A stretch of 64,000 nt of DNA from Trypanosoma brucei (Eukaryota): positions 2,976,001-3,040,000 of the forward strand of contig CH464491.1 in the NCBI GenBank assembly GCA_000002445.1, read 5' to 3'. Shown in pieces: positions 3,322 through 29,160 of the stretch. Position 1 is the first letter of the stretch. Each line of letters opens with the position of its first letter. Below the pieces are notes generated by a model. The model had not been told where the DNA came from and did not search any database. It saw only the letters and a list, made by a program, of their open reading frames with translations. A program made the position numbers and the translations under genes.

Positions 3322-3669
3322 GGCAGCTAAAGGGCATGTGGTATAAGTGGTTTAATTTTGTGCTTTCTGCGCCTTTTCCCGGGCGTGCATACAGTTGCAC
3401 GTAACCTAGAAGGGTGTCGCTTGCAATTTTCATTTGGTCAGCAGTTGGAGCTGTCTTTATTTTTTCTTTTTCACCTAACATTTAATGGCCGCGCTTTTGG
3501 GTACGGAGGTGCGCAGCGTGTAACGTTGGATTTTGTATGCAACTTTTTATCGTGCGGGGCCCCCCCTTACGCGATATTTGGGTCCCTCTACCTGCTTCTT
3601 CTTCATTTGGTTTTTGGCGTAGCAAGCTGAGTAGCGCAAGGCTAACCGCTCTATTTTCTGCTCACAATC

Positions 3670-7801: not shown

Positions 7802-8620
7802 ATGCAAACGTCGCCGGTCCGTCTGGGGGCGCTCATCCGGTACGTATCGTTTCGGCACGCCCCTAAGTTCCGACAGCCACGCCCCGAGGAAGTTATCGGC
7901 CTACCGGTCAAGGAAACGCCGCCTCACTGCGTTCCTGCCTTTGTCCTTCCCGACTTTATCAACGAGGCGGAGGAGCGCGCACTCTTGGCGCTTACGGAGC
8001 CGTGGTTCTCGCGACTTCCGTGCAACGAGGGGCATATGGACGCACTGATACACCATTACAAGGAATTTTATCGATCCTACAAGGGGCTGATGGAGGGTGA
8101 GGGGGCGTGTGGGAGTTGTGAAGACGGATGCCGACATGTGCGTAGGGCTCTCGAGAGGTGTTGGAGCGCGGCAAGTGGATATGTTCCCGCCACGCCATTG
8201 GATGACAGAGTGCATTTCCTGCGGTTGAGCGAATGTGGGTTCATAAGGGCCCATGCCGATGACACCCGCAACTCAAGCGGCATCATTGCCGGGCTGTGCC
8301 TTGGCTCCGCAAGGGTGATGACGCTAACGCACCCCGACCACGCGGGGCAGCGAGTGGAACTCATGCTTGCTCCCCGTGCGTTTTACGTGCTTATGGGGGC
8401 GGCGAGATACAAATGGGAGCACAGCGTTGACTGGATAAGGGATGACGATGAGCACATCGAACGAGTTCGTGGCAGGGTGCCACCGGGCGAGAGATCACTA
8501 GTATTTGACGGAAAGGAAACGGAGTTTAGGCGAGGAGAGCGAACAGCTATTATTTTTCGAGGAGTTTCGCCCCTGGAGTTACTCAAACACAAGACGTTGG
8601 AAAGAAAGGGCCACACATGA
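7802..8620 (+). CDS. AlkB-like 2OG-Fe(II) dioxygenase
   Basis: 272-aa ORF. RAHADD supplies an HxD iron ligand, with downstream His residues (LTHPDH, WEHSV). LMGAARYKWEHSV resembles the AlkB-family G.aRy.W.H motif. Confidence 0.55.
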   Translation: MQTSPVRLGALIRYVSFRHAPKFRQPRPEEVIGLPVKETPPHCVPAFVLPDFINEAEERALLALTEPWFSRLPCNEGHMDALIHHYKEFYRSYKGLMEGEGACGSCEDGCRHVRRALERCWSAASGYVPATPLDDRVHFLRLSECGFIRAHADDTRNSSGIIAGLCLGSARVMTLTHPDHAGQRVELMLAPRAFYVLMGAARYKWEHSVDWIRDDDEHIERVRGRVPPGERSLVFDGKETEFRRGERTAIIFRGVSPLELLKHKTLERKGHT

Positions 8621-8879: not shown

Positions 8880-11760
8880 CTTTTTTTGGGGGGGAGCTTG
8901 CGAAAGGAATGGTCGATCTTTTCATATTTTTTATCGTATCAATGTTATTTTTTATCATTCTTCGTCTAGTCCTACTTCTCATGTGGTTAGACAAGTTATC
9001 GTTAGTAATTTGTTGGAAAAGGTGTAAGGTTTTTAAGTGTTATGACAGAATATGAGGAGAAAGAGCGGAAAACTAGTCTAGCAGCGCTTAGGAGGTTTGT
9101 GAAACATTGTGGTCCCACGCGATTTACATTCATTACCCGCATACCGTTGAGTAGAAATACAAATCAGGTAAACGGAACTTTACTACTGGAAAATGGAGAT
9201 CTGACTGTATGCGCTCAAGATATGAAAGCAAATATCGCGGATATAAGAGAGGATATAGCGTCTTTTAGTGTCCCTCAGCATCAAGATTTTATAAGAGCTT
9301 TTGAAGAAGCAAAAAATATGCTCAAAAATGAATTGGCAGCATTACAAGAACATAAATCAATATTAATGGTGCAATACGAAATGGCTCGTCCATAGTTGGA
9401 AGACGAACATTTAAGGATTTAACAAGCGGCAGTGAACCACTCAGCAGAAATGCAAGATGTTATACAAAATATGAAAAATCAAATGAACCGGATGCAGGTT
9501 GAAAACAATCAAATACTCAACTAATACGGTATGTTGCAAGGGATGTTAAACCAAAAGGAAACTGAAATACAGTATTGGAAATCTATGGTAAACTCACACG
9601 GGTCAACGAACAAAAAGGAGGAAGTGGACAGCTCATCTATGAAAAAGAAAGTCTATGATTGGAAAAGAGAAGAAAATGAAAAAAAAAAATTGTCACCATG
9701 TAATTCCTTGGATGATATTTTACGAAAGAACAGATGAATACACAACTCCAGGATAGGTTGGGTATTTTTCGGCAGTGCCGACGAAGAGTTGCAGGCGGAG
9801 AGGATAAAAACGAGGAGAGAAAATACACCTTCGAAGGATTCGTGGATTACGTGATGGAGACGTCTCCAGTACACATGTCGGCAGCATTTGAGGAAGTGTG
9901 CCCAATGAAAGTAAGACATGAAAGTTACTACTATAAGACTTGGAATATGTTCGTCAAACGGGTTCATACCATACCAGACGTGGGCCTTGCGGAGGCTTTA
10001 TTCCAACTGAGAAAAAAAAAAAATATATATATATATATACGGAACTGCGTATCCTACAAACGGCATCGATGTTTCCTCGAGTCAAAATCCAAGATATTCG
10101 TAACGGCCCAGAGTCATCACAAAATTCAAAAGACCAATTCTGGCAACTGGGGGAGAAACTAAATAAGGTAAGAGCTCCTTCCCCGGAAAAAGCCAAATGC
10201 TATGTGGCCGCATTGGACATTACAGTACGACATGTTATGTGAAGGAAACAGCGGTATGTAAATCAAAAAACGGGGTTCAACCCTCAGAGCAATAAATTGA
10301 GGGATCGTTAATGCCTTGGGGTCCAACCACATAAGAAAAAATTGAGTGGAAACATACCAAGAGAGAAGAAAGGAAAGAACACAAACACGCTTTACATCAA
10401 GGCGAAGAAATAAGGGCAGAAAGTTTGAAAAGGGTGAAAATAAAAGGATACTGGCTCAGATGGTCCGATCTCATCAGAAAAGAACTTCCTCCGTTAAAAA
10501 CCTCGGTAAACGGGGTAACGGTGATCCCGGCACCATCTCACGATCCGATCGTGGTGGCATTGGAAACAGAGGCCAACAGGATCGCCTTAAGTGCATGGAC
10601 AAAAACAACATGGGAGCAAAGGGTGTCCATACTACGGAGACTTTGCGAGTTTGCGGAAAAGAACAACATAGATTCGAGAAGGGAACGTCCCTTTATTCGT
10701 CCTAAGTTTACAATTGGCAAAAAGCAGCGCCGTCCAGTATAAAAGGACGTTATTAAGTTTATTGGCCGCTGTAAGAACACCGGCGCAGATGTTTCTGGCA
10801 TGCCTACAAAAATCAGCGACCAAGGTGCTGATAAAGCAGGCTAGCCCCATGGAGAGATGGGAACTCGACTAGATAAGCGATATGATGACTACGAATCGGG
10901 ATCGAGTGGCGTTGCGCCTGGCGCGGATTACGGCAAGTTGATGGGTAGAAATTGCCCTCCATCAAAAAGAAAATTTTATACCGCGTCCCACCGACAGAGA
11001 GGCTTCTCATACTAGATTGGGGAGCCCTTCCGAAAACGTTCAAGATCAACCTAAACATGGCGGCACGATACGTAGTAATAGGAGGAACAGACGCAAAAAT
11101 GGTTCGGGAACTAACGACAACATTGGAGGAAAACGAAAAAATTACCAACCTGTCCACAAAAGATTTGGAAAAAATACTCCGTCCCTATGGAATGACAGCA
11201 CACTCCATAAAAAGAGGGGCACTAGCCCATGCACCGACAGTGGTCTTCGAGCACGACCTCGACCCGCGTTTTTTAACCCAACTGGGAAAAACAGCGGATC
11301 CTTTGGAATTTCCACGCAGCACGGCAAGATATCTCGGGCATTGTGTAGCACTAATAAACAAATCAGAGCAATTGACTCAGCACGTGCAGAGGAGTTATAG
11401 AGATGGACTTCGGCCCGATGGGCGCTACCAACTGCATGTGGAGAAAGAGATCAAACGCTATTTCAGGGACATAGCATTCTGAGACGCACCCATCACACGA
11501 GGGTGGCTACGGTGGAAGAAAACAAAATACCACTACGAAAAATATGCGTCAACACATTATCCTTGCACCGAATCAAAAACCGAATGAATAGCAAGGCGAA
11601 ACATCGTTTCGAGGAGGCGCGGGAGATCATGAGACAACCCACAAACCTGCAGGAAAGTGAAAGAGGATCTCAGCTAACAGTTTCTACCAAGGATGCCAGA
11701 ATCATGAAGAACGCAGGCATCGTACAAACGGTATCGGCAGCAACCCCCTTGGTTTGAGGT
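8880..11760 (+). mobile_element. Degenerate, 3'-truncated DIRS/VIPER-like tyrosine-recombinase retroelement remnant (AT-rich island)
   Basis: Sharp shift to A-rich composition. ORFs in order: a charged coiled-coil gag-like ORF (9042-9395 and neighbours), a basic ORF (10346-10705), then a tyrosine-recombinase-like ORF split over two frames (10425-10742 and 10952-11482). No RT/RNaseH follows. Boundaries are approximate. Confidence 0.45.
10425..11482 (+). pseudogene. Tyrosine recombinase (phage-integrase superfamily) ORF, frameshifted
   Basis: C-terminal ORF has HSIKRGALAHA (box II H-x-x-R/K-R-G-A), then ARYLGH and downstream Tyr candidates (..QRSYRDG). The N-terminal part sits in a different frame (10425-10742), so at least one frameshift is present. 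Confidence 0.4.
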
Positions 11761-14658
11761 CTGGGAAGAGCTGTCCTCTACAAAGTGCCTTTCCACCTCG
11801 TTTACTTCCCCAACTTTTGCGACATCGGGAATTTAAACAGCCAACTGCGACCCCCGATATTCCGATTTCGACCGAATGCGGGTATCCTTTGATTCCTAAA
11901 CCCTGTAGCTGGCGAGGCCAACCTCCTTGACGTAGTGCTTGGGTTATGACGAATGGTTGCTGCACTCCTTTGTCACGTTCAACTTCTCCGACTCTCCACA
12001 TGGAAACTTTCTAACAACCCCGCCACTGACAGGATGATTCCGCCTGCCGCATCCGTGTCAGCCGCTTCGCCCTATAGGGTTAACCTTGTCCACTGCGCTT
12101 TGCGGGGCTTGCTGGGAGGGTGTCTGGGAGTGTCATCGCTGACTCTCCATTTTGTAACCACTTCGGTTGTTTTTTTCCCCTCTCCTTGTATCCGCACTTG
12201 CTGCGCGGATGGTCAGCCACACGTTTGTTCACGCTGTGTGGCACAGGGACCGCGCCTCTCATTAGATGCTCCTCGAAGTTTCCAGTTGGCAAGCGTCCCG
12301 CAACAAGTCCCCTCCCGCGTGTCAGATTCGCCATCCTTGCAACGGCAATACTTCCTATCTGACAGACTTTTCTCGCGTCTGCCTGTTTTGTGTCTTCCTA
12401 TTCCTCCACGGGCTCCCTCCTTAACTTTCTTCGCCAGTTTTCAACCCTATTCCCCCTTTTCAAATGGGCACGGGGTAAGTCCTCTCTCGAAAATGCGCGG
12501 TTGCAAGCAAAGCGCCTTCGAGCCTCACCACCACAGGTTATGGGTTCGCTTTGCCCTCTCCTTTTCTCTGTCTAGGAGTTTGTGGCCTTCGATCCCACCC
12601 ATTGCCTCGAGGCGATGCGAGTAACTATTTTTCATATCCTCATCACCATCTGGGGTCCCGAACAGGGTAATTGAATATTGCCGCAGGGTGCTGACTTCCC
12701 ACTTTTAGCCAAATGCACACCCCCATTTCGCAATGTTCGCGCGGCGAACCTACAAAATTTTCCCTTTCTCTTAGTCGCGATCTACGCTTTAGCGCCGTTG
12801 TCAACCCCCCTTCCCCGAAGAAACCGTGGGCTCAGGTATGCACACGCTAAGATTGTTGTCTTTTGTCCTGTTTTCCATTCCCCGCAGCAAGGAGTTCACG
12901 TTTTCCAGCGTTTCGTCCGCCACTGCCCCAGGGGAAGATGCGGTTGGGCACCGTACAAACCACCAGATTGCAGTGTCCTAGCCCCAGTTTCAGTAAGTGG
13001 AAACGGTGTGCCTAATCCGCTGGTTGGCGCCACTAAGCTTTGCTTTTGCCGTTTCTGCCTTCGAAAGCACTCCTATTTACACTCATTCCCGCATTTGTTT
13101 GTTTGGGGGGGGGGGAGGGAAGGGAAGTGCCACGCAGTGTCACCAAGAGTTTTTCAAGGTTTTGGCATAGACATGAACAAAGATGGCATCCCTCACCCGT
13201 GGTGGGCGGTTCTTCTTTGCAACGAACCGAATACCGACGGGAAGGTCACTCGTGCGTGTATCTGCCTAGCCTTGAGCAAACCCCCATACACAGCACATTC
13301 CTCGTCACACCCCCGCTCAGTGGGACCGGCGCGCTAGCAGCGTCAGTCTCTTACGTGCTGCGCTGTCGAATTCTAACTCCCCCGCCCGCCTCCACACGAG
13401 TGTATCAGCCTGCAATGCGATATGCGTTGCCGCTGGCTTCGTACACGGTGAAAATAACTTCTCTGTGTGGGCATACGCGGCTTTCCCTATGAGCCGCCGA
13501 TGCAATTCAGCGGTGATGATGTGTGGGCGGCACGGTCTGCGCATGCTCATTTTCGTTGGAAAACACAGTCGCACGCCACGTGCTTCGTTTGGCGTCACTT
13601 ATTGGACGTGCCCGCCCAGCCACCGTCACTCTAAACTGCCCACAAACGGCGAAGATGTATTAGGTTGCCACGATTGCCGCTGCTTTCGCATCGTTTGAGA
13701 AAACGAACGCGCGTCCTGCGTCGCCGTCGAGGAACCAACCCCATCCTTTCCACCTACCGGCAAAAAGAGGCACGCCAGTAAAACGGAAAATGAGATGCCA
13801 AATTACAGAGGTGCGCTGCCTGGCGCGACGGAGTCGCTGGCATCAGTGCATGATAATCGTTTCTGACCGGCACGTGGGGTGCTTAGTAGACCCGCTCCGT
13901 CACTGCGGAAGCACCTCGAGAAAGATTTTGTAGCCACCTGGGGCTGCAAGTCCCCGTACTGACACACGTGAACAAAATCAGAGACCGCGGTTTGGCATCG
14001 CCGTGGCAAATCACGTTGTGCACATAGCATGACCTGTTACCTACGCCTCCATAGCGCTCGGGCCTGGCACCTTGGCTCGCGGAACTGCGACAAGCCCGGT
14101 CCCTCTGGAATCAAATTTCATTCAAGGATGACACCGCCGCTGGAGTGTGTGTAGAAACAAGCGTCCACATGCGGCCCGCGTGCACCCAACTTTACCCTCG
14201 ACACCTAGGAGATCGGAAACGCCAACGAGAACTAAATTAACGTTATTGGGGGAAAAAAAAACACAACCGATGTCGCGTCCTACGGTCCTGATGTGGGGAA
14301 GGAAAAGGGTGACCCCCTGACCGCGGAAAAAATCGTTGGTGAGTGTGCGGTGCATACTTAGGCGTAGCGTATCCCGTACACCTGCGGATGTTTCTCCATC
14401 ACTCGACGTTTGACGCGTTAAAAGTAAAGACAAAACAGTCATACCTTTGGGACGAAAGTTAGGTGCGCTTAAGAAAAAAAAGGGGGGAGGGGCGACCGTG
14501 AACCCTTATCGTTGAAAGAACGAAAGACGCATGAATCGGCTGGGCAAAGATTTGTAGGAGTGTGCCACTGTTATCAATGCCCCTCAGGGGTTCGAGCATC
14601 ACTTGTCAAATCGGTCTGAACAGCGCGAGGCCGGCAAAATTTTGGTTGCCGCCACGCG

Positions 14659-15016
14659 TCGGAGAGGGGTGGGGAGTATGTGGCGCTAGTACCCGCCGTC
14701 AGCATCGCGTGGGCTTATTTTCTTCTGGGTCTTCTTCTGAGCACTTACCCTGTATGAAAGGCTGGAGTGGCAGAAAAGACGTGTCCTTGATTTATGCGTA
14801 CCACACCTGCCTCTTACATTTTCTGTTGTTGCATACGTGTGTGCGGGAAGACGTGGTGACTACTCCGGTCTTCTCGCCGAGCACCTCATGTGCCTTGCTC
14901 GAGTGCTGAGTCTACGCGGCGCGACGGGTGGGCAGTAGGGGGGGGGGCTTGTACATAGAAAAAAAAAACTAGAGCCACCGGATGCTCTTTGTGCGACCCT
15001 GGTGAAAGTGAGAAAG
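14659..15016. repeat. 358-bp direct repeat copy A, in the 3' flank of the sialidase gene
   Basis: Identical by eye to 20249-20607, from cggagaggggtggggagtatgtggcgctag through ggtgaaagtgagaaag. Contains G10 and A10 homopolymers. Confidence 0.9.
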
Positions 15017-15165
15017 AGATAAAGTAAAACCAGTAACCGGAATTATCCGGTGAAGCAGTCGGCCGTGTGTCACCGTCATTCCTAACATGTGACCCCTTAG
15101 AGAGACTGACTCGAGAACCAGAGCGATTTCTATTTGCATTCTGAGTCCGTACTGTCCTGCAGTTT

Positions 15166-17211
15166 TCAAAAAGTGACAACAAAGATCATAGCAGCAAGCG
15201 CCACATATACGTGCGTTGCGTTATCAATTTGCCCGTTGCTGTGACCCTCCTGTGGTTCATCAACAGCAACTAGAGGTGCCTTTGACGGGCATCTAGGCCA
15301 GTACGTTCGCATGAACATCACTTGGACTTCGGCAAGGGTCAACTCCCTTTTGAAAAGAACAGCACTCTTCACCAGTAGTTTTCCATTGGGAGTAGCTTTC
15401 TTCTCTCCATATCCTCCAATATAGAAATGCATAACATCTCGCACTCGCCTAACAGTCTTGATACCGCTTCCCGTCCTCGAGAAGGCGGCACCATCGATAT
15501 TAACAGTGAACAAACCATTGTACATGGTTATCGTAACTTGGTGAGTCTCGTTGTGGATGGAGGATCCAAATGTAGGCACATGCCGGCCCCCAAACGTTAC
15601 GTACCATTTGTCATCCGATGTGTACGACACTTCAAGACACTCGTCGACACTTCCCTCGCTGATGACAACGCCCACAACCGGGATTTTTTCACTCACTCGG
15701 TCAGGCACCTCCACAGTCACCCCAAGTGTAAATTCATAATTTGCAAAGTTGTAAAGCTGAGCCCCCGTGTGGTTGCTCACAGTCCATGTGGCACCCCGAT
15801 TAGGGCCACTAAATAATATACCATTCAATGTTTTCTTAGCCCCAACAGCTTTGATGCTCACGCTGTTATATGTGTCCTTCCACTGATCACCATCTAAATC
15901 ATTCAAAAAAAGCCCAGCGGGTGCATCATCAACACAGTTTACGCGGTCGGTGGCTCCTCTGGTTCCGGAACGGAGCACACTCTCGGTCCTCCATTTTTCC
16001 ACAACCGCTTTTATCTTTTCGAGTTCATGATCTAAATGCGCAACCTTGCCTATGTCATAGGGTACCGCGTTGCTTACCTCATCATGAAAGGTGCCAGTTT
16101 TTTTGTAGAAGTAAAGCAGTTTGCCGTTGCTGTACAGCAGTGTCCCTTCACCATCTATTCCACCTTCAAGAGTGACGTGACCAATATCAAAAAAATGTTC
16201 GCCATCAGATAGCCAAATATTGAGCCCATCCCCATATGAGTCAGTCGACGGTGCGCGCCGGGTGAAAATCAACAACCTTTTCCCTTCAATTGTGACAACA
16301 AGCAAGTTGTGTGATCCACCTTCGGCTGCACCACTGGCCCACACACGCGAGAACGTCCTCTTGGCTTCCGTCCATTCCCTTCCCATATTGATGGATTCAT
16401 AAACAGCCAAGTGACCGGTATACGAGCCGTTGCTCAACATAAGCCTCCCTCCCCATTCAAAGATGTTGCAATTCTCCTTGCATACATGAGCTTCTAGGGG
16501 TGTCGACTTCCAGTGGATACCGTCGTCCACGGAATAAATTATTGTGGGTACGTCTTCGCTATTCTCGTTCTTTAAACAAACGAGAAATACAAGTAAACCC
16601 CCTTCAGTGACGATTGCATCCCTTCTTCCTCGGAAAAACTTGTTCACTGGCCCCGCTTGAAGTCCAGTGGGGAAGACCCCCTTCAACGGCACCTGTTTGT
16701 TCCACTCTACACCAGCTGATTGCGAAAAAAAACCTCTCGACCTTACAACTTTCCCAGAAATTAGAAGGAGACTATCTTTGCACTCACTTATCGTTACCTT
16801 GCCTAAGCCATCGCCTTGCACATCATACCCGCTTGCAAGCACATACACATTGCTCCCTTTGGCAACTACTTCAAGTGGTATTGGATAGGAAGAATACTCC
16901 ATCTCCTTTCTTCCTTCAATTATGTTGTCCTTTTTCCATGTCCTCCCCCCATCTATGCTCGAAAGTGAAAACGTTCTTAGCCTTACTTCACCAGCCAGGT
17001 GATATCTGAATTCTCCGATTGCAACCAACACACCTTCAGCCTCGACGACGGAATGAATATGTACGGCATCAACGACGGAGAGCAAGAAACTGCCCTTTTC
17101 TTCCCCGTCGAAAAGATCAAATTCATAAACATCCGGTGTCTTAGCAATACTACGTGTCCAGCCGATGTTGCACAGGACAAGTAACAGTAAAATGAGTATT
17201 TGCATTCTCAT
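15166..17211 (-). CDS. Trans-sialidase / sialidase-family surface glycoprotein
   Basis: 681-aa ORF, the only convincing minus-strand gene. N-terminal signal peptide MRMQILILLLLVLC. Three Asp-box motifs S-x-D-x-G-x-T/E-W (SIDGGRTW, SVDDGIHW, SINMGREW). C-terminal lectin-like region and hydrophobic GPI-anchor-type tail (VALAAMIFVVTF). The FRIP-like motif is altered to FRYH. Confidence 0.85.
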   Translation of the reverse strand: MRMQILILLLLVLCNIGWTRSIAKTPDVYEFDLFDGEEKGSFLLSVVDAVHIHSVVEAEGVLVAIGEFRYHLAGEVRLRTFSLSSIDGGRTWKKDNIIEGRKEMEYSSYPIPLEVVAKGSNVYVLASGYDVQGDGLGKVTISECKDSLLLISGKVVRSRGFFSQSAGVEWNKQVPLKGVFPTGLQAGPVNKFFRGRRDAIVTEGGLLVFLVCLKNENSEDVPTIIYSVDDGIHWKSTPLEAHVCKENCNIFEWGGRLMLSNGSYTGHLAVYESINMGREWTEAKRTFSRVWASGAAEGGSHNLLVVTIEGKRLLIFTRRAPSTDSYGDGLNIWLSDGEHFFDIGHVTLEGGIDGEGTLLYSNGKLLYFYKKTGTFHDEVSNAVPYDIGKVAHLDHELEKIKAVVEKWRTESVLRSGTRGATDRVNCVDDAPAGLFLNDLDGDQWKDTYNSVSIKAVGAKKTLNGILFSGPNRGATWTVSNHTGAQLYNFANYEFTLGVTVEVPDRVSEKIPVVGVVISEGSVDECLEVSYTSDDKWYVTFGGRHVPTFGSSIHNETHQVTITMYNGLFTVNIDGAAFSRTGSGIKTVRRVRDVMHFYIGGYGEKKATPNGKLLVKSAVLFKRELTLAEVQVMFMRTYWPRCPSKAPLVAVDEPQEGHSNGQIDNATHVYVALAAMIFVVTF

Positions 17212-20200
17212 TGCGAAAAACTCTTAGGGTACGGAAATAGTCTCCCTGCAGATGTGCGCGGTGTGTGCTTGATCGTTGTGAGGGCACCCTGAGTACTTTG
17301 GCGGTGGTACTCTTCAACTGGCTGCGTGCGGGTAGTGTTTTACAGAAAGGGGACAAATTACCTAACTTATGTATATAGCCGAAAAAAAGGGGTGACAACA
17401 CAGCACTTACAAACGGTGACATCATAAATATTAGGTACGAATGCTTATGTAATATGTAGCGGTGCCCTCAAATACTGAAGCGATCAAGGAACCAAAGTTG
17501 GTTTTGCACCACATCGGTGAGAGGTCCCCGATACGTCATGCGAGCCCCTAGAAGACTGCATTAACAGTGACAGGTCAATGCACTAAGATATCCTGAATCA
17601 CCGGCGGTGTATAGCTTGGCAAAAACTTCTCGCTTCCACTATTAGTTGCTGCAAAATTTTGCACGGCACTTGAAAAATATGTGGTATAAAAGCAAAGAAA
17701 AAGTGTTCGAGCCAAAACGCATTGCACCGAAACACTGTCTTCTCCCTCACCCCAACCCTGCTACGTTAACAGGTCACCAAAGTTCGTCACCGAACAAGGA
17801 CAAGATGTTCATTATTAGGAAGCAACTAATCCTTATGCACCTCGAGTTGCAGAAACTATTTCTTTTTTTGGCACCCGAATAACCCAGTGTATTACAACTC
17901 TTTTTTTTAAAAAAATGAAGTAGTAATAGCCTTTTCTCCATTAGTTTTATTCGTCCATATGGCGAAATTGAACCTGTCACTTGCATATAGCCAATCTTTC
18001 TTCACCCATCGTCGGCGTGCGTTTTCACATTTACTGCCCACTTGTGTGTAAAGACGGACGCACGAAACAATGGTTTGCAGGACAACGAGGGAAATCAAGC
18101 CATACCATAGCCGCCTACTTTCTAAACCATCTCGTATCTGTTTGCACATTCAAGGGGAATGGTTATTTCCCACTGGCTGCTACAGTCAGTGAATCGTAAT
18201 AAAGACGCTACACGGGTATTGAAAGCACAGGCGAAAATACGTAGGACAACATCTAATCGACACAATCTTCGCGGCAATTATAGTCTTTTCCCTACAATGG
18301 GAAACGCACTCCGCATGGTGACCCGCGTACAAACGCATGGATCTGCGTTTGTGCATGTTTGTTAAAAAAAAAACAACAAACAAACTATGTTAGCCCATCA
18401 TTTCAAAGCATCCATTTGCCGTAAGAAAGGTAAGCCCAGACCGCGGTTTCCCCACAACTTACCGCCAACACGAAGCAGCCGCTCGCAGCCGCGCCCCAAC
18501 GCAAACGCATGGGACCTCTCGCCCGTTGGGGCGTGAGAGGTCCCCGTGAGTTTCGGTGGGCAGGCGGGGGTAACAACGTGAAAGCTCCCTCCGCCCATTT
18601 CTGGGCTATGATGAAATATTAGCTCCGCCACCCCTCCTGAAGCTTCCCTTCCGCATACCGGGCGTCGCTTGCTGCCACCGCGAGGAAATACGAATCACCG
18701 ACGACATATCGGCGGGTGTGGTGGGGGAAGCCAGGGGGTGGACAACTAAACAGAGTGGTATCCCAACAAAGCGCAGCTGGCCCCCCGCCGTCCGACGCCG
18801 TAGCTTGCGAGCAAGGGGGGACCGTTACGGAGATGAGGAATGCTGGTGGTTCTTTAGTTATCCCATACATACGGGACAGCGGGCCCAGCGTCATGAAAAC
18901 CCCTTTAAAACGCCTAAAGGGACGGAAGCAGCGACTGTTGGCCCCGAAGCACGCCCACAAGAGCATGGAGGTGCCTTGGAGGGCGCTCCGCAGACTGGCA
19001 TGCAATTTCTTTGTCCTTTTAGTCGTGTTAACCCCTCACCTTTTCCTGTGGAAGGCGTGTCGGCTGCTGATCTGAACGAAGCGGTGAATGACCACTGCCA
19101 CTCCCGGCGCTTGGACGAGCGGCCAATTAAGGGCATGACCTTCGCAAAGAAAGTTGGAGGGCCGGGGCGCTATATGGGAAAACCCCCCTCGACGACGTGA
19201 GGAAGCTGTCGCACACGATTGAATCTAGTTCCGTGAGTTTCCCATGAAGGTCCTTAATATGTTTTGATTTCGCTCCAGAAGCTTACTTCGCAACCTTTGA
19301 GTGATTGATGCGCTTTCGCAAAGATTGCTCCACTTTCACCTGTTAACATCCTCGCTCTTTGAATTTCAAGGGTCACAATCATTAGGTTTCGAGGAATCAC
19401 TCAAAAAAACCTCTACCAAGCCCGGAAAATTCCCCTTCCAGGTGCTGTCAGAGGAAGTGCTGCTTCCGAGATGCGTGGTCCTTTGTTCGACCCCCTCCCG
19501 TCCCTCGAGAGGGTGTCGTCCACTCCATCTTTGGAGGAATCGGATAACGGCGCCCCCGTCCTTTACAGCGGAAGAGTTCCTCCTCCCAACGAAAGTTCTG
19601 CCCTAGCACCCAATTTACTGGCTAACGACTGGGAATTTGCCGTTCCGTGTTGGTATTGAGTACTCCCTCCACTTTAACCCTTCTTGATCGCCATGGCTGT
19701 GCGTCAGCTTTGTTTCGACCGCTTTGCAAAAAAAGAAAAAAAAATGCCATCCCCTCCCGAGCCGTCCTCCGTGCTCCTTCGCCGAGGAAAAGCGTATTTT
19801 ATCTGCCGGGGCCGGGAGCGCCTCTAGGGGAAGGAAAATAGCGTAAACCCCCTCGCCAGCGCGGTGGTAGTTGGTGGTGGCACTAGCTCAAACAGGTGCG
19901 GAGCTCGCACAAAACTTGTTGTAGGTTTTTTTTTCGCGAGGATGGGCATCGTCTGGCAAAACCGAGAGGTGGCGAGCGCCGTTGCTATTGCCCCCAAAAC
20001 TGGGAGACTTCAGTCAGCGGTGTAGCGATTAAGGATGCGACGCGTACGGTTGTCGCCGCCGCTCCTCCGGTTCCCAGGTTCCCTCTTTCCGAAAAAAAAT
20101 TTGTTCAGTAAGGCAATCCCACTGGCAATTCAGACCTGCCGTCTCTTTGTTTCCTACAGTGAACCTTCGTTATTATTATTATTATTATCACAATAGTTGT

Positions 20201-20248
20201 ATGTGTGAGGTTATCCGGAGTGCGCGTGACTCAGCCGAGCGTATGGGC

Positions 20249-20607
20249 TTCGGAGAGGGGTGGGGAGTATGTGGCGCTAGTACCCGCCGTCAGCATCGCG
20301 TGGGCTTATTTTCTTCTGGGTCTTCTTCTGAGCACTTACCCTGTATGAAAGGCTGGAGTGGCAGAAAAGACGTGTCCTTGATTTATGCGTACCACACCTG
20401 CCTCTTACATTTTCTGTTGTTGCATACGTGTGTGCGGGAAGACGTGGTGACTACTCCGGTCTTCTCGCCGAGCACCTCATGTGCCTTGCTCGAGTGCTGA
20501 GTCTACGCGGCGCGACGGGTGGGCAGTAGGGGGGGGGGCTTGTACATAGAAAAAAAAAACTAGAGCCACCGGATGCTCTTTGTGCGACCCTGGTGAAAGT
20601 GAGAAAG
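20249..20607. repeat. 358-bp direct repeat copy B, about 3 kb upstream of the sialidase gene
   Basis: Identical to 14659-15016. The flanks diverge immediately outside the repeat. Confidence 0.9.
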
Positions 20608-23600
20608 TTTCCAACGGTCTATTCTCGGGTTACCTCTTCTGGATTTTTACCGAAGTAGTCCCGCTGTCTTTACATGTGCGTAGCGACGCTGGTTGCCGCT
20701 GCATGTTTTGTCTTCCGTCTTAAGGTTGCGGTGGCCCAAAAGTCTACAAGCTGTTTGGAGGCTACTGTGGCGCACGGCGTCTGTTTTGTGGCCCTGTCGA
20801 ATGTTGCTTTTTGTCATTTGTGTTGCGTGCATGTCGTGAGCGGTGGATAAAGATATGCGACATTTACAGTATATGCTGGTTTCAACAGGTAATGCTGGTG
20901 CCTACTAGGTCGTAAAATGTCGTTACGGGACCTTGCAAATTTTGGACGGCGTCGAATAAGAGGAGTGCCGAATGCAAAGGTGTTGTTGCACTAACCTTAG
21001 GAATGCGAAAATTTCGTGTTGAAGTACCTGCTGCATTCGCATACAGGTAGAGAATTGGTTGATAATACTTTCCGGCCTCCGAGTTACGTCACTCTGTTAG
21101 AGAGCAGAGTTGATTTTTTATTAATGTGGCAATCGGGACGTATATGGTACATGTCAACCCCTTGTTGCCACGGTGAGGTCTGTGACAGGTGTGCGTGCTG
21201 TTTTCACGTTAGAATCGTGTAATAAGTGTTTACAAGGTTGGGAAATCTGACATTTCTTCCACCCAAATTCTCAAACGCGTTTCCTCGTATGGAATCTGCG
21301 TTGGTTTTTGGTTGATTTGTATACACAGGACTAATGTTTTTTGTACTCGACGGTGAGGGTTGCCGGAAATATCAGGATGGTGTTAATAACCCTCCCCCCA
21401 TCAAGGATAATAAGCAAAAGGAGGGAGGCGGGAGCGGGGGGCCATTTGCTGACTGTTTGGCCTTTGGCGCGGAGAGGGGCTTGACGAGGTACAATGTGTA
21501 GAAATTTGAAACTTTTGTTTTCTATCATTGGAATTATATATATTTCTCCGTGTAGTGAAATGATCCTTTGACGGAACTTGAAAGTTTTTTTAATGATCTC
21601 TCTCTCTGTTTTTGTGGAGTAGCAGCCGCTTTTCTTTCATTTACTTTGAATGTATTAATGTGCTTAGGGGAAAAGACGCTTACTCGTGTTTCCCTGCTGG
21701 TACACTCACCGACATTTTATTAGGACAAACACACCCGCGTATATAAACAAAACAATTTTGATGTTGCGGCGGTTGCTACTGAAACAATGGTGCCAGCCAA
21801 ACGGTGGATGACTGGGATAAAACTTCGATACCATTGTGGAACGAGTAGAGGGGAAATAAAGTTGGTGCTGCCCTAGCCGTCCCAGAACTCTTTAGATCCA
21901 CCCCGCTGGGACGACCCCATCTGTATACCATGGGATGTGATACCCAATTGGCACTCTTTTTGCATTTCCCCCCCTCCAGGATAGGAGCCGGGGGCGTTTA
22001 TCATGCTCTTTTAAAATTTCTGTTGATAGGTCTTCACCATTTTCAGAAAAGAAACAAAACAGTTCGTGCAGGCAGGGTTCCGTTCTAAGTCGCTTGGACT
22101 GGGAGCGGACTTGCTAAACGTGTCTGATTTCTGACACACTTGGTGTGATCGTCACCGTAAACACAGACGTCTTGGCGATGCTCCCCCCGTAACTGGCTGA
22201 TTGTAGGTTGCACACATTTTGCACGGCTTGTTACCACGGCGTGTGAGGGAGGTGCGATACTAACGACCATAGAAAAACAATCGAAAAAAAGGTCCGCCCC
22301 TTCGTTTGCCATGAGTGAGATTATGTGAGCTACCTCAGCGATCTTTCCTGGATTCAGTGAGAATGCGTATTGAATCCTATTGAGACCCTAGGGATGCACG
22401 GCGGTGTAATTGTCCATAGATGTCTATAACCCGTGGTACATTTCCAAGTAAGGTATGTTGAACGCATTCGTTTATCGGTCGTCCGTTTAGCAATGGCCAA
22501 GAAGGGTTAAAAACTCAAGACATTGGAGCCTTCGCGATTGTGGTGTGGGGAATAATGACGTATACATGTACGTAATGTTCGACGGCATTTGGCCCATCTC
22601 AAAATGGAGTTCGTTTTGGTGGGTTCGGACTAAACATGGACTTAATTTATTAAAGACGGTGAGCAGATGATTTGTTGCAATACGTAAATAAGTTTCCCCA
22701 AGGAGAAACCTGGCGAATATTTTTGGCATGTGATAGCATATTAACCGTCAAATGTAACACCCCATTCAGCGGCAAAACCTCTTTCTGAAACCTTGCTCGT
22801 TCGTTTTACTACCATCACGCTCATATCCGGCCCTTAAGGGGCTGAAAGGTTTGCAAGCGGCTCCGTCGATAATTTCCTATCGACGTGGTCTATTCGCATA
22901 GCATGTGTTGTATCATACTGTGTTCATTTTTGTCGATGGGTGCATGTGTGTGGGCGCTTCGTATTTTTTCCAATTTTACTTCATCCGAGCAACGAAGTCA
23001 AATAACACCATTCGAAGCAAACTATGGAACCCCTGCGTTGTCATCGCAATTTAAGAAGTAGACTATGCACGTGTAGACGCTAACACCCCCTTTTTTTTTT
23101 GGGGGGGGGGTGATTGATTGAAAATATTGTTGTTGACATTCCGATCATTACTTTGGTTACCGGAGTGGCAATCCCGCCTGAAAGCGTCGCGCAGGTAAGC
23201 CTTTTTATCATTATGTATGCGTTTCGGTATATATATATATTAGGCTCAGTACTTGCCGTCTCTGTTTTACTCGGGTTATGGCTGCTGCTACCCTACTGTT
23301 ACCTTGTTATTTGTCAGCGGTTGGGGTCTCTTCATTTTTACAGTGGAGGTGCTTGTGGATAAGAGGCACCTACGAACTAACGTAGGTTTGTACCAATCAC
23401 TCACTCATGCCATCTGCCATGAGGCGGGTGCTAGCGGAGATAGGCACGTCTTTCCCGTAGAGTAACCTGCGCTTTTTTGACTGCTGCGGTGTTTGGTTAG
23501 TGCAATCTACAAGTTTACGTGATTATTTGTGGTAGTTCCTTTTTTTTTTTTGAGGAAAGAAAAGTGTCTTTGCACCATAACGCTGTATCCAAGCTATTGC

Positions 23601-26300
23601 CGGCGCCATGGAAAGATATTTTCATATGTATATTACATACAACTTAATTTCCAGGGAATGCGCTCAGTGTATGAATGCTGTACACATTCTTTTTTTTTTT
23701 TGCATTCTTTGCCTGGAAACAGCGGTAAATGTGAACTGCCTGAAAGTGTGTCTAAGTTATTTTTTCCATTCACTTCACCGCCCAACTCGGTGTGGTTGAG
23801 TTTCCCATGGCCCAGTCGGTGTGATATCTGTTATTACATATTTTTTGCGACCATTTTGTTTCGCGTTTTCTACTTGAGCATGTTATGACCATGACCACCA
23901 AAAGGATCAGAATTACCATTTCCCACTGTGTTTTTCTCTACTAACGCCTCAACGCCAGTGCCGCGCCAGCAAACATCTTATATCATAGGGGAAGAATTGT
24001 TTGCAGTCTGAATCAATTGTGTTTGGGTAGTACTGGATCGTGCTCCTGTTTTCACATTTTGAGATGTTGCGAGTGAAAAGGATACCAAGGGACCGCTTAC
24101 CGGCTTCTACTTACTCGGCCGCGGCTGTACGCCTCTTGTAAGCATATTCTTAAGTTGCTCCCTTTTCATGTCTCGGGTGGGTGTTTAATGAAATCGGTTT
24201 ACAAACTACTAGATTGCACTTCAGATGATAGGAGGGAGCTGGAACTCAAGACAGTTGGAGTGCCCGTTTCTGGGTAGCAAGGGGGGGGGGGGAAATTGAT
24301 GTTCTTTGTTCTAAGAAGTTGCTTTTGTATGCGGGATGGAGGTTCGACAAGGCTTCTGCTTTGCGGTAGAGGTTGCTGTTAGCACTGATTTCACTCGTAC
24401 TTGGGGGGAACCCTGCCATTAATAAGCAGTATGTTTGAGGGAGCAGCTCATCTTTCTTATTATTGTGCAGTGCCCCGTTCCACCTTTCTGCTGGGTCCGC
24501 GCAGTTCTCTCAGCAACGTGTGCGCGGATCTAATCCATAGATTCAAGGAACGAAGTCTTTTTCGACGGTCATAGCTGTTGAACTTCCGGCTCGGTTGGGT
24601 CATGAGCAGTGAATCGTGGTAGCGGTGCACCAGAGGTGTGGGTCTCTGTTACAATTTTAAAGGTTGCTATTGGTTTGCACGATCACATCAGAGTTGACAC
24701 AGCACTTGCACTCCTGCTGGGGTCCAGGGTGTATTGAGTGACTTGCACCTTCCTGGTGCCGTCGGTTACCGGTTCCTGCGAAAAACTTTTTGGCACGTGT
24801 TGACGAACCCCGCTGCTGGTGTGTGGTGTTCTGTGCAAACTTTTTTTTTTTGAGCAGCACTAATTTCCAGCCAGCTGAGGATCTTTTCTACAGCAAAGTG
24901 GGGAGGGCAGGGAGACCTCGTGCTGGGACTGATGAAAACGCGCTTTCTTAAAAACATGGTTAGTGTACCGCTCTCCTTGTTGTTCCGAAAGCGAGTATGT
25001 TTCGGAGTTGTCTTGCCTCCAGCAACATGATTTGCAGTGAATTTCAACTGCTAAAAACAATGTGAATGCCCAAGGCGTAACATGCTTGCTGTTCCGCCAA
25101 ATAAACTAGTGTGTGATTGTGCTAAAAGGAAATGCAAAAGGATTTGAAACCTTACGTTCAGATCTTAAAGAACTGTGAGACCCCTTTTTTTCTGGATGGC
25201 ACTCAATTACTTCCCTGGTTGGAGGAGTCACAGTTACAACCTGGCCAACTTACATGTCGTAGTACAAGCCCCCCTTTCAAGAAGGTAGCTCTGGGTTAAG
25301 CAGAAGCTGTTATGTGATGCCTGCTATTTATACCGCGGTTCTGACTCACTTCTTTTCGTGCTATCAACAGCGGTTTCTTTGCACTGGTCGACGACTAGTG
25401 TGATTTAACGGGAATTTGTTGTGGTAGGTAGCCGAAATTGGCTTCAGGTGCATCACGTAAAATTCCTCACCAGTTGTATTTTCGTCGGCACATCCTCGTC
25501 ATCGGAATCTGTTGTCGCACTACCTTGAGTGGATCCGTGACAGAGTGGGTAATTTCCGGGGCGTTGTTCTGGTGCTTACTAGAGTGGGCTCGTTGTTTTC
25601 AAGTCAAACATATCTTCAGGATAAGGGGCGCCAATAGGCACGTGGCTACCCCCTCCCCTAGTGAGAGGATTTGTCGCGCTTTTGGCGGGTGTATCCAGCC
25701 GTTTTTTTTTTGCTGAACCGCTACGGCTCGTGGGGCTTGGCATTATGCTGGTGCCGAGTGCCTATGCTTAACAGAAGAGTCGGCAATCGTTAAGTGTCCC
25801 CTGTGTTGCTGAAGGAGGGGTCTTCTGGTGAACCGGCTCCGTTTCGCTAAAGTTCCCTTAGTTTTCGGCGGCGGCGTTACGTGGTCAGAAATTGTTGTGA
25901 TTACTGCCAAGGCACTGCGGTAGTTGCTGTGTTAACACGCTCAGGGACTACTTAATCTTTTACTGAGCTGTGCGCTCTCGTGTTTGCACCGTTCTCCATG
26001 GGTTGCCTAACGGAACAGCACTGTGTGCGGCAAGTCGAAGGAAGTAATTAGCCATGCAGGTGAGAAGATGCCACCCACACCAAGTGGTGATGTTACTGGT
26101 TCCGTGGGTGGTTATATCGACTGAAGCAAACAAAAACATATGGTTATAGTATTGGTTTTCGCAACTGTCGCTTCAGCTGCGGCGGCTGACGAGGCCCACA
26201 GGCTGTGAAGCACTCGTCGGTGTCGACCCTTTTTATCTTTCTTGAGACCGCACTTGTCAAACATTTCATCTTGATACCCCTACTTGTAGGCAGCGCGGCG
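20608..26300. other. About 5.7 kb ORF-poor, non-repetitive region; candidate divergent strand-switch / transcription initiation region
   Basis: No ORF over 120 aa in any frame. Complex sequence with scattered G-rich and poly-T tracts. It lies between the minus-strand sialidase gene and the downstream + strand gene cluster that starts with the cullin gene. Confidence 0.4.
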
Positions 26301-26703
26301 CCTTTGTGGTTTGACATTTGGCACCACTAAACATGTGTGTTGTTGTCTCAGGGTTCGGTCCTCCGGCTACGTTTAACGGGGGTTATGTGAGAATGATAGG
26401 GGAGGGTTTCCGTTTTTTCGCCACCATCTGGGTGATGTGGGTGGTGGCGTTATCAACTGAAATACAGTTGCTGTTTGCGCGCGCTGGCGTCAGCAAGGGG
26501 GGATATCGTTATGGTCTTAGTACTTTTATTATTTTACTCGCACAAGTGTTTCTTGGTACGGAATGGAGTCGTACTCTTCGTATCAAGTTTCTTACGCTTT
26601 ACCATTGCTGCTTAAGTAAAGAAAAAAATAATCACCATTATGATCTGTATCTGTTTGTACCACGCTTCAGTGAAGGCTCAAGGTTATCTACGTAGTAATA
26701 CAC

Positions 26704-29160
26704 GTGTATATTGCGCGTGGGAGGAGAGGCGCTGGTAAACGGATGGAGCAGACCAACCATGACGATGTCAGCTCTGCTGAAGTTGCGAGGGCTTACTCAG
26801 GATCTTTGGGTGCATCATCGTTTCAGTTTACTCCCCTTTGGGAAAGCGTTGACTACGTTTGTAGTATTATACTAAGTTGGTATGACTTCCCTGATTTCAA
26901 AGGTGGAGAGGCGCTGCAACAGCTTGTGCGTGCGTACACAATCGTCTGCCGGTTAGTTTCTTCCCCTTGTGCTGGGTGCCCACCACTCGCTAGACCCTCA
27001 GTGGAGGGAGATATTGTTACTGCTGCTGAGGTTACGCAGTCTTTGGTGGTTTATAGCCGTATCTGCGATATGATACGCAAGAGACTGGATACCGTAGTTG
27101 GAATGCGCTTCAGGGATGCTGCGGAACAGCCACCCCCACGTCTTCTGGAGGACTACATTGTCGAATGGAAGAGGTTCATTACTTCCGTCAATATGCTGAA
27201 ATTCGTATTTTCTTATCTCCACGGACCATGGCAGAAATATGGCGTACCACCTGGTCTCATGCAGTCCACTGAGGTAATTGCCCTCAACAAGTGGAGCGAA
27301 ATGTTAATGAACACTAATTTTCAAGAGGCCCTTACCAACCAGATTTTTGAGCTTGTTGCCATGGATCGACATCACCATCCAAACATGGAAAGGGCTCAAA
27401 TTCTTCGGGAAGTGGGCCATGCTTTGGGTGTGGTAAGTGACGCAAGGAGTAACTGGTATGTTACCCTTGTGGAAGAGCGCTACCTCCGACAATTAACCGA
27501 TTTCTGTAAGCTTAAGACTGAAGAGATGAAACTGGGTGATGTTGAGCACTATATTGAAGAAGCCCTCACCATTTTCAGGGATGAGACGGAGCGCGCCATT
27601 CGCTTGCTGGCGCAGAGCTCGATACAGCCGGTGGTCCAACGAATAGCTGAGGTGCTCATCAATGACGAACTTTCATTCTTGGATGAGTTCATTTCCAGTG
27701 AAATAGTTAAAAATAGGGTGACTCAGCTGCGCCAGTTATACTCGTTGCTTTCACAAAGTCAAGTTGGACTGAGACATTTGAGGGATGAATTTAAAAAGTG
27801 TGTCATTGAAAAGGGGCGTCGTGAAATCAATGAGGCGTGCGAAAGGGCTAAGAACTCGAATACTGGCGTTTACCAAGTTGCCCTTGAAAAAGTTATTTCA
27901 GTGTACAGGGATTTTCAGTTACCAATGAAGGCCTTCGGGGATAAGGGGGATTTTGAGAAGGAGCTCATTGATGGGCTTCATAATGTCTTAACAGCTTGTT
28001 CCTATCTTGACCCCCAAAACATGTTGGGACGTGAGGTGGCGCGATTTGCTCACAACGAACTGATTTCCAGAAAATTGGGGGTCCGCTGCGAAGAAGACGA
28101 AGGAAATATGAATAACATTGTTATATTATTTCGCGTTCTTCCCACAAAGAACCTGTTTGTGGAAACATACCCTATGTACCTCTGCTCACGGCTCCTGTCT
28201 ACTGAGTATGTTGTTGAAAACGAGCGGTTGCTTATACAGGAAATAACACAGACGGGAGAATGCACGAGAGATTTTATGAACAAGTGCGCAACGATGTTGA
28301 ATGACGTGGGGGAAGTCAGTGAGAGGCTGTCAGAACAGTTTCGAGAGAAGGCGGGACTGACGGATTTGAACTTCCACCCAACTGTCCTGAATAGCTATTT
28401 CTGGCCAAATTTCTTACCTGAACCCGAGATGGCTATTCCTGGTTACTTGCAGATGAAGTTGTTGGAATTCGGGAAGTTTTTTCAGGATGTGTGTCCGAGA
28501 CGCCACATCAGCTACGTCAACAGGTTATCACAGGGTGTATTGAGGTTTAACCTTTCTGATGCTTCTCCAGTGCAAGGCTTGGACATCTGTGTGGGCGTCC
28601 GGCACCTACCGGTTGCTGAGTTATTCAACTGCTGTGCCGAATGGGAGCTTCAGGAGCTGATACAAAGTGTAGGAAATGATAACTCTAACAGCTGTTTAAG
28701 TGCTATAAATGATTTTGCGAAGCACGGTATACTCGATATTCACGAGGAGGGAGGTGTGACGTTGAAAAGCCACTTGCGGGAAGTTCTTCCAGGCTGCCGT
28801 GTTTCCATCGGACGCACGCCCGACATCAGGAACAGAAAGATAGTTTTGCATGAAACGAAGCTCGATCGAGAGACCAAAGTGGATGGAGCAGGTTCTTCTG
28901 ATTTCTCACCAGAACGCTACGATGTTAATACCACCACAGAGCAGATGGTAGCATTGTCCACACAGGCCACGCTTATTCGTGCGTTTAAAAGTGAAGGGAC
29001 TGCTTCTTTTTCGCAGTTGTTCGAAAGAGTCGAGAATGAGTCACCGGCGCACTTAAAGCCATCGATCCAACAGATGAAAGTAGCCTTGGAGTTTCTCATC
29101 AGCCGTGAATTCGTCCGAAGAAATGAAGACGGTACAGACACGTTTTCGTACGTTACATAA
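26704..29160 (+). CDS. Cullin
   Basis: 818-aa ORF. Cullin-repeat body and a C-terminal neddylation/winged-helix region (..IQQMKVALEFLISREFVRRNEDGTDTFSYVT). The true start may be the internal Met at 26743 (MEQTNHDD). Confidence 0.75.
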   Translation: MYIARGRRGAGKRMEQTNHDDVSSAEVARAYSGSLGASSFQFTPLWESVDYVCSIILSWYDFPDFKGGEALQQLVRAYTIVCRLVSSPCAGCPPLARPSVEGDIVTAAEVTQSLVVYSRICDMIRKRLDTVVGMRFRDAAEQPPPRLLEDYIVEWKRFITSVNMLKFVFSYLHGPWQKYGVPPGLMQSTEVIALNKWSEMLMNTNFQEALTNQIFELVAMDRHHHPNMERAQILREVGHALGVVSDARSNWYVTLVEERYLRQLTDFCKLKTEEMKLGDVEHYIEEALTIFRDETERAIRLLAQSSIQPVVQRIAEVLINDELSFLDEFISSEIVKNRVTQLRQLYSLLSQSQVGLRHLRDEFKKCVIEKGRREINEACERAKNSNTGVYQVALEKVISVYRDFQLPMKAFGDKGDFEKELIDGLHNVLTACSYLDPQNMLGREVARFAHNELISRKLGVRCEEDEGNMNNIVILFRVLPTKNLFVETYPMYLCSRLLSTEYVVENERLLIQEITQTGECTRDFMNKCATMLNDVGEVSERLSEQFREKAGLTDLNFHPTVLNSYFWPNFLPEPEMAIPGYLQMKLLEFGKFFQDVCPRRHISYVNRLSQGVLRFNLSDASPVQGLDICVGVRHLPVAELFNCCAEWELQELIQSVGNDNSNSCLSAINDFAKHGILDIHEEGGVTLKSHLREVLPGCRVSIGRTPDIRNRKIVLHETKLDRETKVDGAGSSDFSPERYDVNTTTEQMVALSTQATLIRAFKSEGTASFSQLFERVENESPAHLKPSIQQMKVALEFLISREFVRRNEDGTDTFSYVT

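Follow-up and report, generated by a model that had tools for sequence, protein, structure and literature searches.

A 358-bp direct repeat pair under gene conversion brackets the minus-strand trans-sialidase-like gene TbTS-like D2 of Trypanosoma brucei

Direct repeats of a few hundred base pairs that bracket several kilobases of DNA are known from long terminal repeat (LTR) retrotransposons, VIPER/SIRE and ingi/RIME. Repeat-mediated amplification has reportedly been described in Leishmania (by Ubeda and colleagues, in 2014), where the repeats belong to dispersed families. In tandem arrays, such as that of HSP70 near the present locus (PMC8459984), near-identical head-to-tail units are kept alike by recombination, and in low-copy direct repeats with gene conversion the paralogous copies are more alike than the orthologous ones. 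A further class, the 'reverse' genes of T. brucei polycistronic units, lies on the strand opposite to its neighbours, and according to the RBP33 study (PMC9757043) it is up-regulated when non-productive transcription is de-repressed. Here we analyzed 64,000 nucleotides of T. brucei chromosome 11 (GenBank assembly GCA_000002445.1, contig CH464491.1, positions 2,976,001 to 3,040,000 of the forward strand; hereafter the window, with positions counted from its first letter), in which the minus-strand gene TbTS-like D2 (Tb11.01.3240 = Tb927.11.11410) of the trans-sialidase family stands between two identical 358-bp direct repeats, R1 and R2.

Like low-copy direct repeats with conversion, the present pair consists of two direct copies a few kilobases apart whose paralogues are more alike than their orthologues, and it is a new instance of this familiar kind of repeat under concerted evolution. 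At 358 bp, the repeat is long enough for homologous recombination. Unlike the dispersed families said to act in Leishmania, this unit was seen in two copies only. The pair has the direct-repeat architecture of the mobile elements named above, but it encloses a cellular gene, keeps a fixed position and comes without gag, pol, reverse-transcriptase or recombinase genes and without canonical termini. In contrast to tandem arrays, of which RACK1 provides an example in the window, just 358 bp are repeated here and the gene is not, and there is no second gene copy or remnant. TbTS-like D2 lies opposite in strand to the Pfam-supported neighbours on both sides and has low expression, as the 'reverse' genes do; in contrast to genes embedded in a unit, it would stand where one ancestral unit ends and the next begins, and not in the interior of an ancestral unit.

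Direct pairwise comparison within the window showed that 14659-15016 (R1) and 20250-20607 (R2) are identical over 358 bp with no mismatch, as the preliminary description had it, except that its second interval started one base too early, at 20249. A perfect match of this length cannot arise by chance. The two copies are offset by 5591 bp, and the DNA between them (15017-20249) amounts to about 5.2 kb. The repeat begins with TCGGAG and ends with GAGAAAG; the G10 and A10 runs reported earlier are indeed inside it (14938-14947 and 14959-14968 in R1). R1 lies 150 bp downstream of the stop codon of TbTS-like D2, and these 150 bp are not duplicated. R2 lies 3.04 kb upstream of the start codon of the same gene and 6.1 kb upstream of a cullin gene. 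The three bases preceding the repeat (GCG at one copy, GCT at the other) were excluded from it because just one of the three agrees in the other haplotype, which is described below. On the outer sides, the left flank ...GCCGCCACGCG abuts R1, and R2 abuts TTTCCAACGG..., and the edges of homology are abrupt at both ends of the repeat in three genomes. With blastn at word sizes 7 and 11, searching the repeat and the 9-27 kb region against the window, no weaker homology was found beyond the ends; no third copy was found by these searches in the 64 kb, nor in about 60 kb of related loci. A metagenome scan gave no match to the repeat, and no tandem or inverted repeats were detected in the repeat region.

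Both copies exist in other assemblies. In T. b. gambiense DAL972 (FN554974.1) they have the same boundaries and are 99.2% identical to each other, and in T. b. equiperdum IVM-t1 (CM010682.1, a 3.65-Mb contig) they again have the same boundaries, with no N in the stretch read. R1 and R2 each have their own unique flanks in these two genomes, and copy-specific differences are present there. Short-read contigs break at the repeat: one contig of the short-read assembly of T. equiperdum OVI ends 35 bp into R1, the OVI contig that bears the gene (5598 bp) begins in the G run of one copy and stops in that of the other, and a Logan contig ends 30 bp into R1. Such breaks are the expected behaviour of a true two-copy sequence, and the repeats make short-read assemblies break at this locus. 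Every assembly seen holds one 5.59-kb unit. The 5598-bp OVI contig, being one period long, was considered as a possible circle or array, and this was rejected because the contig ends in the G run and its neighbour stops 35 bp into R1. A separate peculiarity of OVI is a stretch of 421 bp plus 10 N (contig positions 15537-15966, at window 13330/13331) that is absent from the window and from gambiense and has no match elsewhere in the window; as an artefact, it was probably introduced by scaffolding or gap filling.

In an alignment of the six complete repeat copies from three genomes (window, DAL972 and IVM-t1), seven sites (five substitutions, one indel in the G run and one in the A run) separate the window haplotype from the gambiense/IVM-t1 haplotype, in R1 and in R2 alike, and only one to three sites are copy-specific. 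The copies within a genome differ at 0-3 sites, against 7-8 between orthologous copies across haplotype classes; the partial repeat copies of T. equiperdum OVI have the window haplotype. Paralogous copies are more alike than orthologous ones, within boundaries common to three genomes, which is the pattern of concerted evolution. As the boundaries are identical in the three genomes, the duplication predates the haplotype split, and the changes shared by both copies therefore imply at least one non-allelic conversion tract of at least 216 bp. R1 and R2 have been kept identical by non-allelic gene conversion, not by recent origin or selection. The perfect match had also been set against several substitutions among the RACK1 tandem units, but this contrast is weak, given that the two RACK1 coding sequences of the window differ at just 1 of 957 positions.

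The gene between the repeats (15166-17211, minus strand) encodes 681 amino acids, and its earlier assignment to the sialidase family was borne out. Pfam identified BNR_3 (4e-31, residues 54-364) and TS_C (2.4e-36, residues 433-625), and the protein aligns over its full length with the structures of T. cruzi trans-sialidase and T. rangeli sialidase (E = 2e-71), so that both the sialidase beta-propeller and the lectin-like domain of the GH33 trans-sialidase/sialidase family are present. It is 100% identical to the TREU927 protein XP_829206.1/EAN80094.1 ('trans-sialidase, putative') and to that of T. equiperdum OVI. An active enzyme would be recognized by the arginine triad R35/R245/R314, the acid/base D59 and the nucleophile Y342 (T. 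cruzi numbering). In the alignment with T. cruzi trans-sialidase, R35 is replaced by H, D59 by E, R245 by G, R314 by G and Y342 by E, and E230 is kept. TbTS-like D2 is a family homologue and is not predicted to be an enzyme, because five catalytic residues are replaced. Its H/E/R at positions 35/59/53 is the pattern of the inactive TconTS-Like2 (Table 2 of PMC3855035), and the TS-like genes are not enzymes according to that paper, whose Table S2 lists TbTS-like D2 as Tb11.01.3240 and cites Montagna et al. 2006. The published cloning and qPCR (quantitative PCR) primers for the gene match the window. A hydrophobic N-terminal leader (MRMQILILLLLVLCNIGW) and a hydrophobic C-terminal tail (VALAAMIFVVTF) in the sequence suggest a putative surface-type protein.

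At 130-190 nt before the ATG of TbTS-like D2, the minus strand bears a polypyrimidine tract with AG. The position of a published qPCR primer shows that the 3' untranslated region (UTR) reaches at least 15073, and it probably runs into R1. According to PMC10064699, Tb927.11.11410 mRNA is low in procyclic forms and goes up on perturbation. This is the one indexed paper with the gene identifier; flanking repeats are not mentioned in the passages of it that were read, and no mention of conversion between the repeats or of a break in synteny was found in the searchable literature.

Among the Trypanozoon genomes in which its reading frame is intact, TbTS-like D2 is single-copy and at least 99% identical, and its pN/pS against gambiense is 0.21. 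These values, together with a syntenic relative in T. congolense (see below) and the loss of the catalytic set, speak against the earlier idea that the arrangement provides rapid copy-number and antigenic variation. A side observation concerns IVM-t1, in which the coding sequence of the gene has two compensating 1-bp homopolymer indels 418 bp apart (window 16307 and 16725), leading to three stop codons in about 140 codons; compared with gambiense it also shows four extra nonsynonymous changes and no synonymous change. These changes reflect either long-read error or gene decay in a parasite that is no longer tsetse-transmitted.

The gene had been regarded as a lone antisense gene, and its orientation stands: every other open reading frame (ORF) of the window with a Pfam hit is on the plus strand, and the other long minus-strand ORFs either overlap plus-strand genes or have no hit. 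This reverse orientation was already published in PMC10064699, which describes the gene as lying within a unit. Synteny and composition would place it instead at a unit junction. In the window, the last Pfam-supported gene of the upstream plus-strand unit is a 2OG-Fe(II) oxygenase (AlkB-like; 7802-8620, plus strand; hereafter the 2OG gene); the supported genes of the downstream plus-strand unit begin with the cullin gene TbCul-E (Tb927.11.11430; 26704-29160, plus strand; Pfam Cullin 9e-63), which is named as in PMC12816148 and whose annotated 805-aa product would begin at the ATG at 26743. In both T. vivax and T. cruzi, genes of the opposite strand come immediately after the 2OG gene, among them COX15 and a metallophosphatase and, in T. 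vivax, also CEP44; T. theileri has one more plus-strand gene after the 2OG gene before the minus-strand genes begin. Within 10 kb of the 2OG gene, tblastn found no sialidase homologue at the T. vivax, T. cruzi or T. theileri loci. The T. theileri cullin gene lies on the same contig about 193 kb from the 2OG gene, in inverted orientation, and it is preceded by about 10 kb without a supported gene, in which just three small ORFs were called. A stretch of some 7 kb on its upstream side is comparable to the leader at 19859-26703 in T. brucei, and the gene order after the cullin gene (MutY-like, then Kelch) is common to T. theileri and the window. Because the 2OG gene lies at or near a unit end in these three trypanosomes and the cullin gene starts a unit in T. 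theileri, the gene-poor 18 kb between them in T. brucei would represent a rearrangement junction, where the end of one unit meets the start of another.

The position of TbTS-like D2 at this place is old. Over the final 168 amino acids of TbTS-like D2, through the C-terminal tail, the T. congolense protein TCIL3000_11_12070 shares 43% identity with it, and it is nearer to TbTS-like D2 than the other family members found (29% identity for TbTS-like D1, for example). The gene of TCIL3000_11_12070 is two locus tags away from the T. congolense 2OG gene (TCIL3000_11_12050), and a D2-like gene was therefore at this place before T. brucei and T. congolense split. TCIL3000_11_12070 is annotated as a 220-aa fragment, and both the full TconTS-Like2 (TcIL3000.0.21990) and the cullin gene of T. 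congolense (contig 881) are unplaced; the IL3000 assembly seems to have come apart at this very junction. As another observation on this site, two T. cruzi strains have a minus-strand GP63 gene (Peptidase_M8) directly after the 2OG gene (12794-14497 of the extracted locus L007 and 12790-14493 of L008), and no GP63 was called after the 2OG gene in a third strain (L006). In T. cruzi, too, a surface-protein gene occupies the convergent strand-switch site.

Base composition changes close to R2. The cumulative G+T skew reaches its minimum at 19858, about 390 bp to the left of R2, and rises steadily after it; between 19.9 and 26.7 kb the plus strand is GT-rich, with a mean G+T skew of +0.13, and T. 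brucei start regions have GT-rich sense strands (PMC5579346). The gene-poor, GT-rich stretch at 19859-26703 (plus strand), which holds R2, may accordingly be read as the putative start region of the downstream unit. To its left, the composition is cleanly of minus type at 15-19 kb and mixed at 9-15 kb. The G+T excess of the repeat (+0.152) is higher than that of all 427 windows of the same size in 9.4-19 kb (mean -0.064, standard deviation 0.062) and is ordinary in plus-strand regions, where 18.6% of windows are equal or higher. R2 has plus-type composition on both flanks and R1 on neither. Because the composition of the repeat fits the R2 side and is an outlier near R1, R2 is probably the native copy and R1 the ectopic one. 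The density of polypyrimidine tracts was too sparse to be used as a strand indicator. Long plus-strand G runs also occur apart from the repeat, as G11 at 13105-13115 and as G12 at 24281-24292; the latter lies inside the leader, 2.4 kb upstream of the cullin gene, and shows a 5-bp indel against gambiense.

These results are best accommodated by a locus-specific, low-copy direct repeat that arose by local duplication around the known, dead TbTS-like D2 gene at a junction of units, a reading to which we assign a probability of roughly 55%. The native copy would be R2, with which the GT-rich leader of the cullin unit opens; R1 would derive from R2 and would have been placed 150 bp beyond the stop codon of TbTS-like D2, for example as a templated patch in break repair. 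Later non-allelic gene conversion between R1 and R2 would keep them identical. TbTS-like D2 itself would most likely form a one-gene minus-strand unit, starting near 19.9 kb and converging on the upstream plus-strand unit. Through the repeats, the 5.59-kb unit could also be deleted, amplified or turned into a circle; no product of these kinds was seen in the genomes examined.

Several points weigh against this account. The unit boundaries are deduced from synteny and skew, and PMC10064699 places the gene within a unit; the left boundary is moreover fuzzy, with mixed skews at 9-15 kb. The T. congolense evidence consists of proteins and locus tags. The argument on the direction of copying uses the base composition of only 358 bp, and that on neutrality, given below, would stand on seven differences. 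A dispersed family with just two local members may still be compatible with the data, as the search for copies covered the window and the related loci.

Two other origins were ranked below local duplication because they are less parsimonious. In one of them, the whole 5591-bp unit was duplicated in tandem and the second unit was then deleted except for its first 358 bp, which would make R1 the native copy. The geometry, a direct repeat with a period of one unit, fits such a history, and tandem arrays are common in this genome, with RACK1 next door in 2-5 copies. Nevertheless, tblastn with the TbTS-like D2 protein found no second sialidase copy or fragment in the window (the next hits have E > 4), the edges of homology are sharp at both repeat ends in three genomes, the repeat is of plus type like the R2 side and an outlier in the neighbourhood of R1, and two events are needed instead of one. 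We consider this history unlikely, and the suggestion in the preliminary description of a remnant of a sialidase array received no positive support.

A slightly less probable origin is the insertion of the 5.23-kb segment into a single repeat, either when a staggered break was repaired with 358 bp of fill-in or when a circle bearing the repeat integrated by a single, Campbell-type crossover. Direct repeats flanking an insert are the expected footprint of such an event, the segment is almost wholly of minus type whereas the repeat and its right flank are of plus type, and the 5598-bp OVI contig corresponds to one period. The last point is explained by the breaks at the G run and the repeat described above. 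Any insertion would have to be old, since the nearest T. congolense relative of TbTS-like D2 already lies by the 2OG gene; no donor locus or empty site is known, and the circle must already have carried the repeat. If insertion were the true origin, both copies would go back to a single target sequence, and excision of the segment as a circle would still be open to the pair.

It is improbable that the repeat is functional and kept in two copies for that reason, either as a GT-rich promoter or boundary fragment or as a polypyrimidine signal (T10...C10 on the minus strand) for the 3' end of TbTS-like D2 mRNA. In its details this proposal, equally improbable, would have R2 help to start the cullin unit and R1 drive or stop plus-strand transcription across TbTS-like D2. 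Consistent with a role are the GT-rich composition with the G10 run, the place of R2 at the very start of the GT-rich domain, the directional transcription driven in T. brucei by GT-rich elements of 210-416 bp (PMC5579346), the low procyclic level of TbTS-like D2 mRNA and its rise on perturbation (PMC10064699), and the reach of its 3' UTR, probably into R1. However, the repeat has diverged between haplotypes as fast as synonymous sites and the neighbouring non-coding DNA: its divergence is 7/358 (2.0%), against a synonymous divergence of 1.5% in the gene and similar values in adjacent non-coding DNA, and the bracketed segment diverges by 11-15 per kb, a value usual for non-coding DNA. In the other haplotype even the G10 run is broken up and shorter, and the identity of the copies is explained by gene conversion. 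The repeat sequence would accordingly appear neutral, with no sign of a constraint of its own.

More speculative still is that the repeat is a portable piece of a GT-rich polymerase II start region, with R2 being part of that of the cullin unit and R1, directed into TbTS-like D2 from just beyond its 3' end, firing antisense (plus-strand) transcription over the gene, or R1 and R2 acting together as a boundary pair, so as to silence the gene in procyclic forms, and with conversion keeping the elements matched. A variant in which the pair allows regulated loop-out or amplification of the 5.59-kb unit is just as far-fetched. Nothing found here supports a functional role for the repeat. A structured RNA or a known RNA family in the repeat was likewise considered and rejected: Rfam gave no hit in the repeat or the bracketed segment at the gathering score or at E <= 1, no tRNA was found in either, and the folding z-scores of the two strands (-0.04 and +0.82) are no better than those of shuffled sequences.

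A mobile origin, as an LTR-like or SINE-like (short interspersed nuclear element) cassette or as a member of a dispersed family of RIME or SIRE-like kind, is very improbable; for this origin, including the LTR-like cassette of the preliminary description, the direct-repeat architecture is the sole support. In the bracketed segment, no gag, pol, reverse-transcriptase or recombinase ORF or remnant was found, TbTS-like D2 being the only supported ORF. There is no target-site duplication at the outer flanks (...CCGCCACGCG and TTTCCAACGG...), the repeat runs TCGG...AAAG and not TG...CA, and it has no terminal poly(A). A third copy is missing from the 64 kb and from the related loci, and all Trypanozoon genomes examined have the pair at one and the same place. 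The assembly artefact also suggested earlier, a consensus duplicated in the reference, to which the perfect identity of the copies here could point, has a negligible chance of being right, being refuted by DAL972 and the gap-free IVM-t1 contig with their unique flanks and copy-specific differences and by the OVI and Logan contigs that break at the repeat.

TbTS-like D2 and its reverse orientation are already known. Judged by the searchable literature, the repeat pair is new as a small, clean case of non-allelic gene conversion in the T. brucei core genome (358 bp, 5.2 kb apart). Also new is that a 'reverse gene inside a unit' appears to sit at an old junction of two units, which, by comparison with T. 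vivax, T. cruzi and T. theileri, was formed by rearrangement. The pair, as a duplicated fragment of a putative GT-rich start region antisense to a silent gene, further offers a natural test case for promoter or boundary activity that was not described before in that literature. The repeats are a predictable site of deletion or amplification of TbTS-like D2 in field isolates. In practical terms, the analysis serves mainly to clarify what was seen: a real structure that is neither a mobile nor an antigen-switching cassette.

Within the bracketed segment (15017-20249, 5.23 kb), TbTS-like D2 is accompanied by its 150-bp 3' flank and by roughly 3 kb of DNA on its upstream side that contains no supported ORF; the largest three of the other ORFs in these 3 kb have no Pfam hit at E <= 1. 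The upstream plus-strand unit contains an AAA ATPase, two RACK1 genes, DUF179, the 2OG gene and a decayed gene, and the downstream one contains TbCul-E, a MutY-like gene and a Kelch gene. The decayed gene (10392-11482, plus strand) is a homologue of the 247-aa gene that follows the 2OG gene in T. theileri (11422-12162 of the extracted locus L005), with 45-65% identity by tblastx and tblastn. It is split over three frames in the window and over two in gambiense and IVM-t1, with stop codons in addition in gambiense, and neither Pfam nor PDB gave a match to it. It resembles a pseudogene common to Trypanozoon, and by this homology the upstream unit would once have extended at least to it. A retroelement remnant at 9.5-12 kb, suspected from a tyrosine-recombinase-like motif, had no Pfam or PDB support and was rejected, the stretch being this decayed homologue of the T. 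theileri gene.

The RACK1 tandem (2365-4626) varies in copy number, with two copies in the window, one in gambiense DAL972 and in T. equiperdum OVI (possibly collapsed), three in IVM-t1, five in T. vivax and one to three in T. cruzi strains. Further downstream, a plus-strand ORF of 658 aa (41839-43815) has no Pfam hit and lies in a region of extreme purine skew (42-44 kb; GC skew +0.295, AT skew +0.295); long ORFs on the opposite strand overlap it, and the composition suggests a repetitive, low-complexity coding region.

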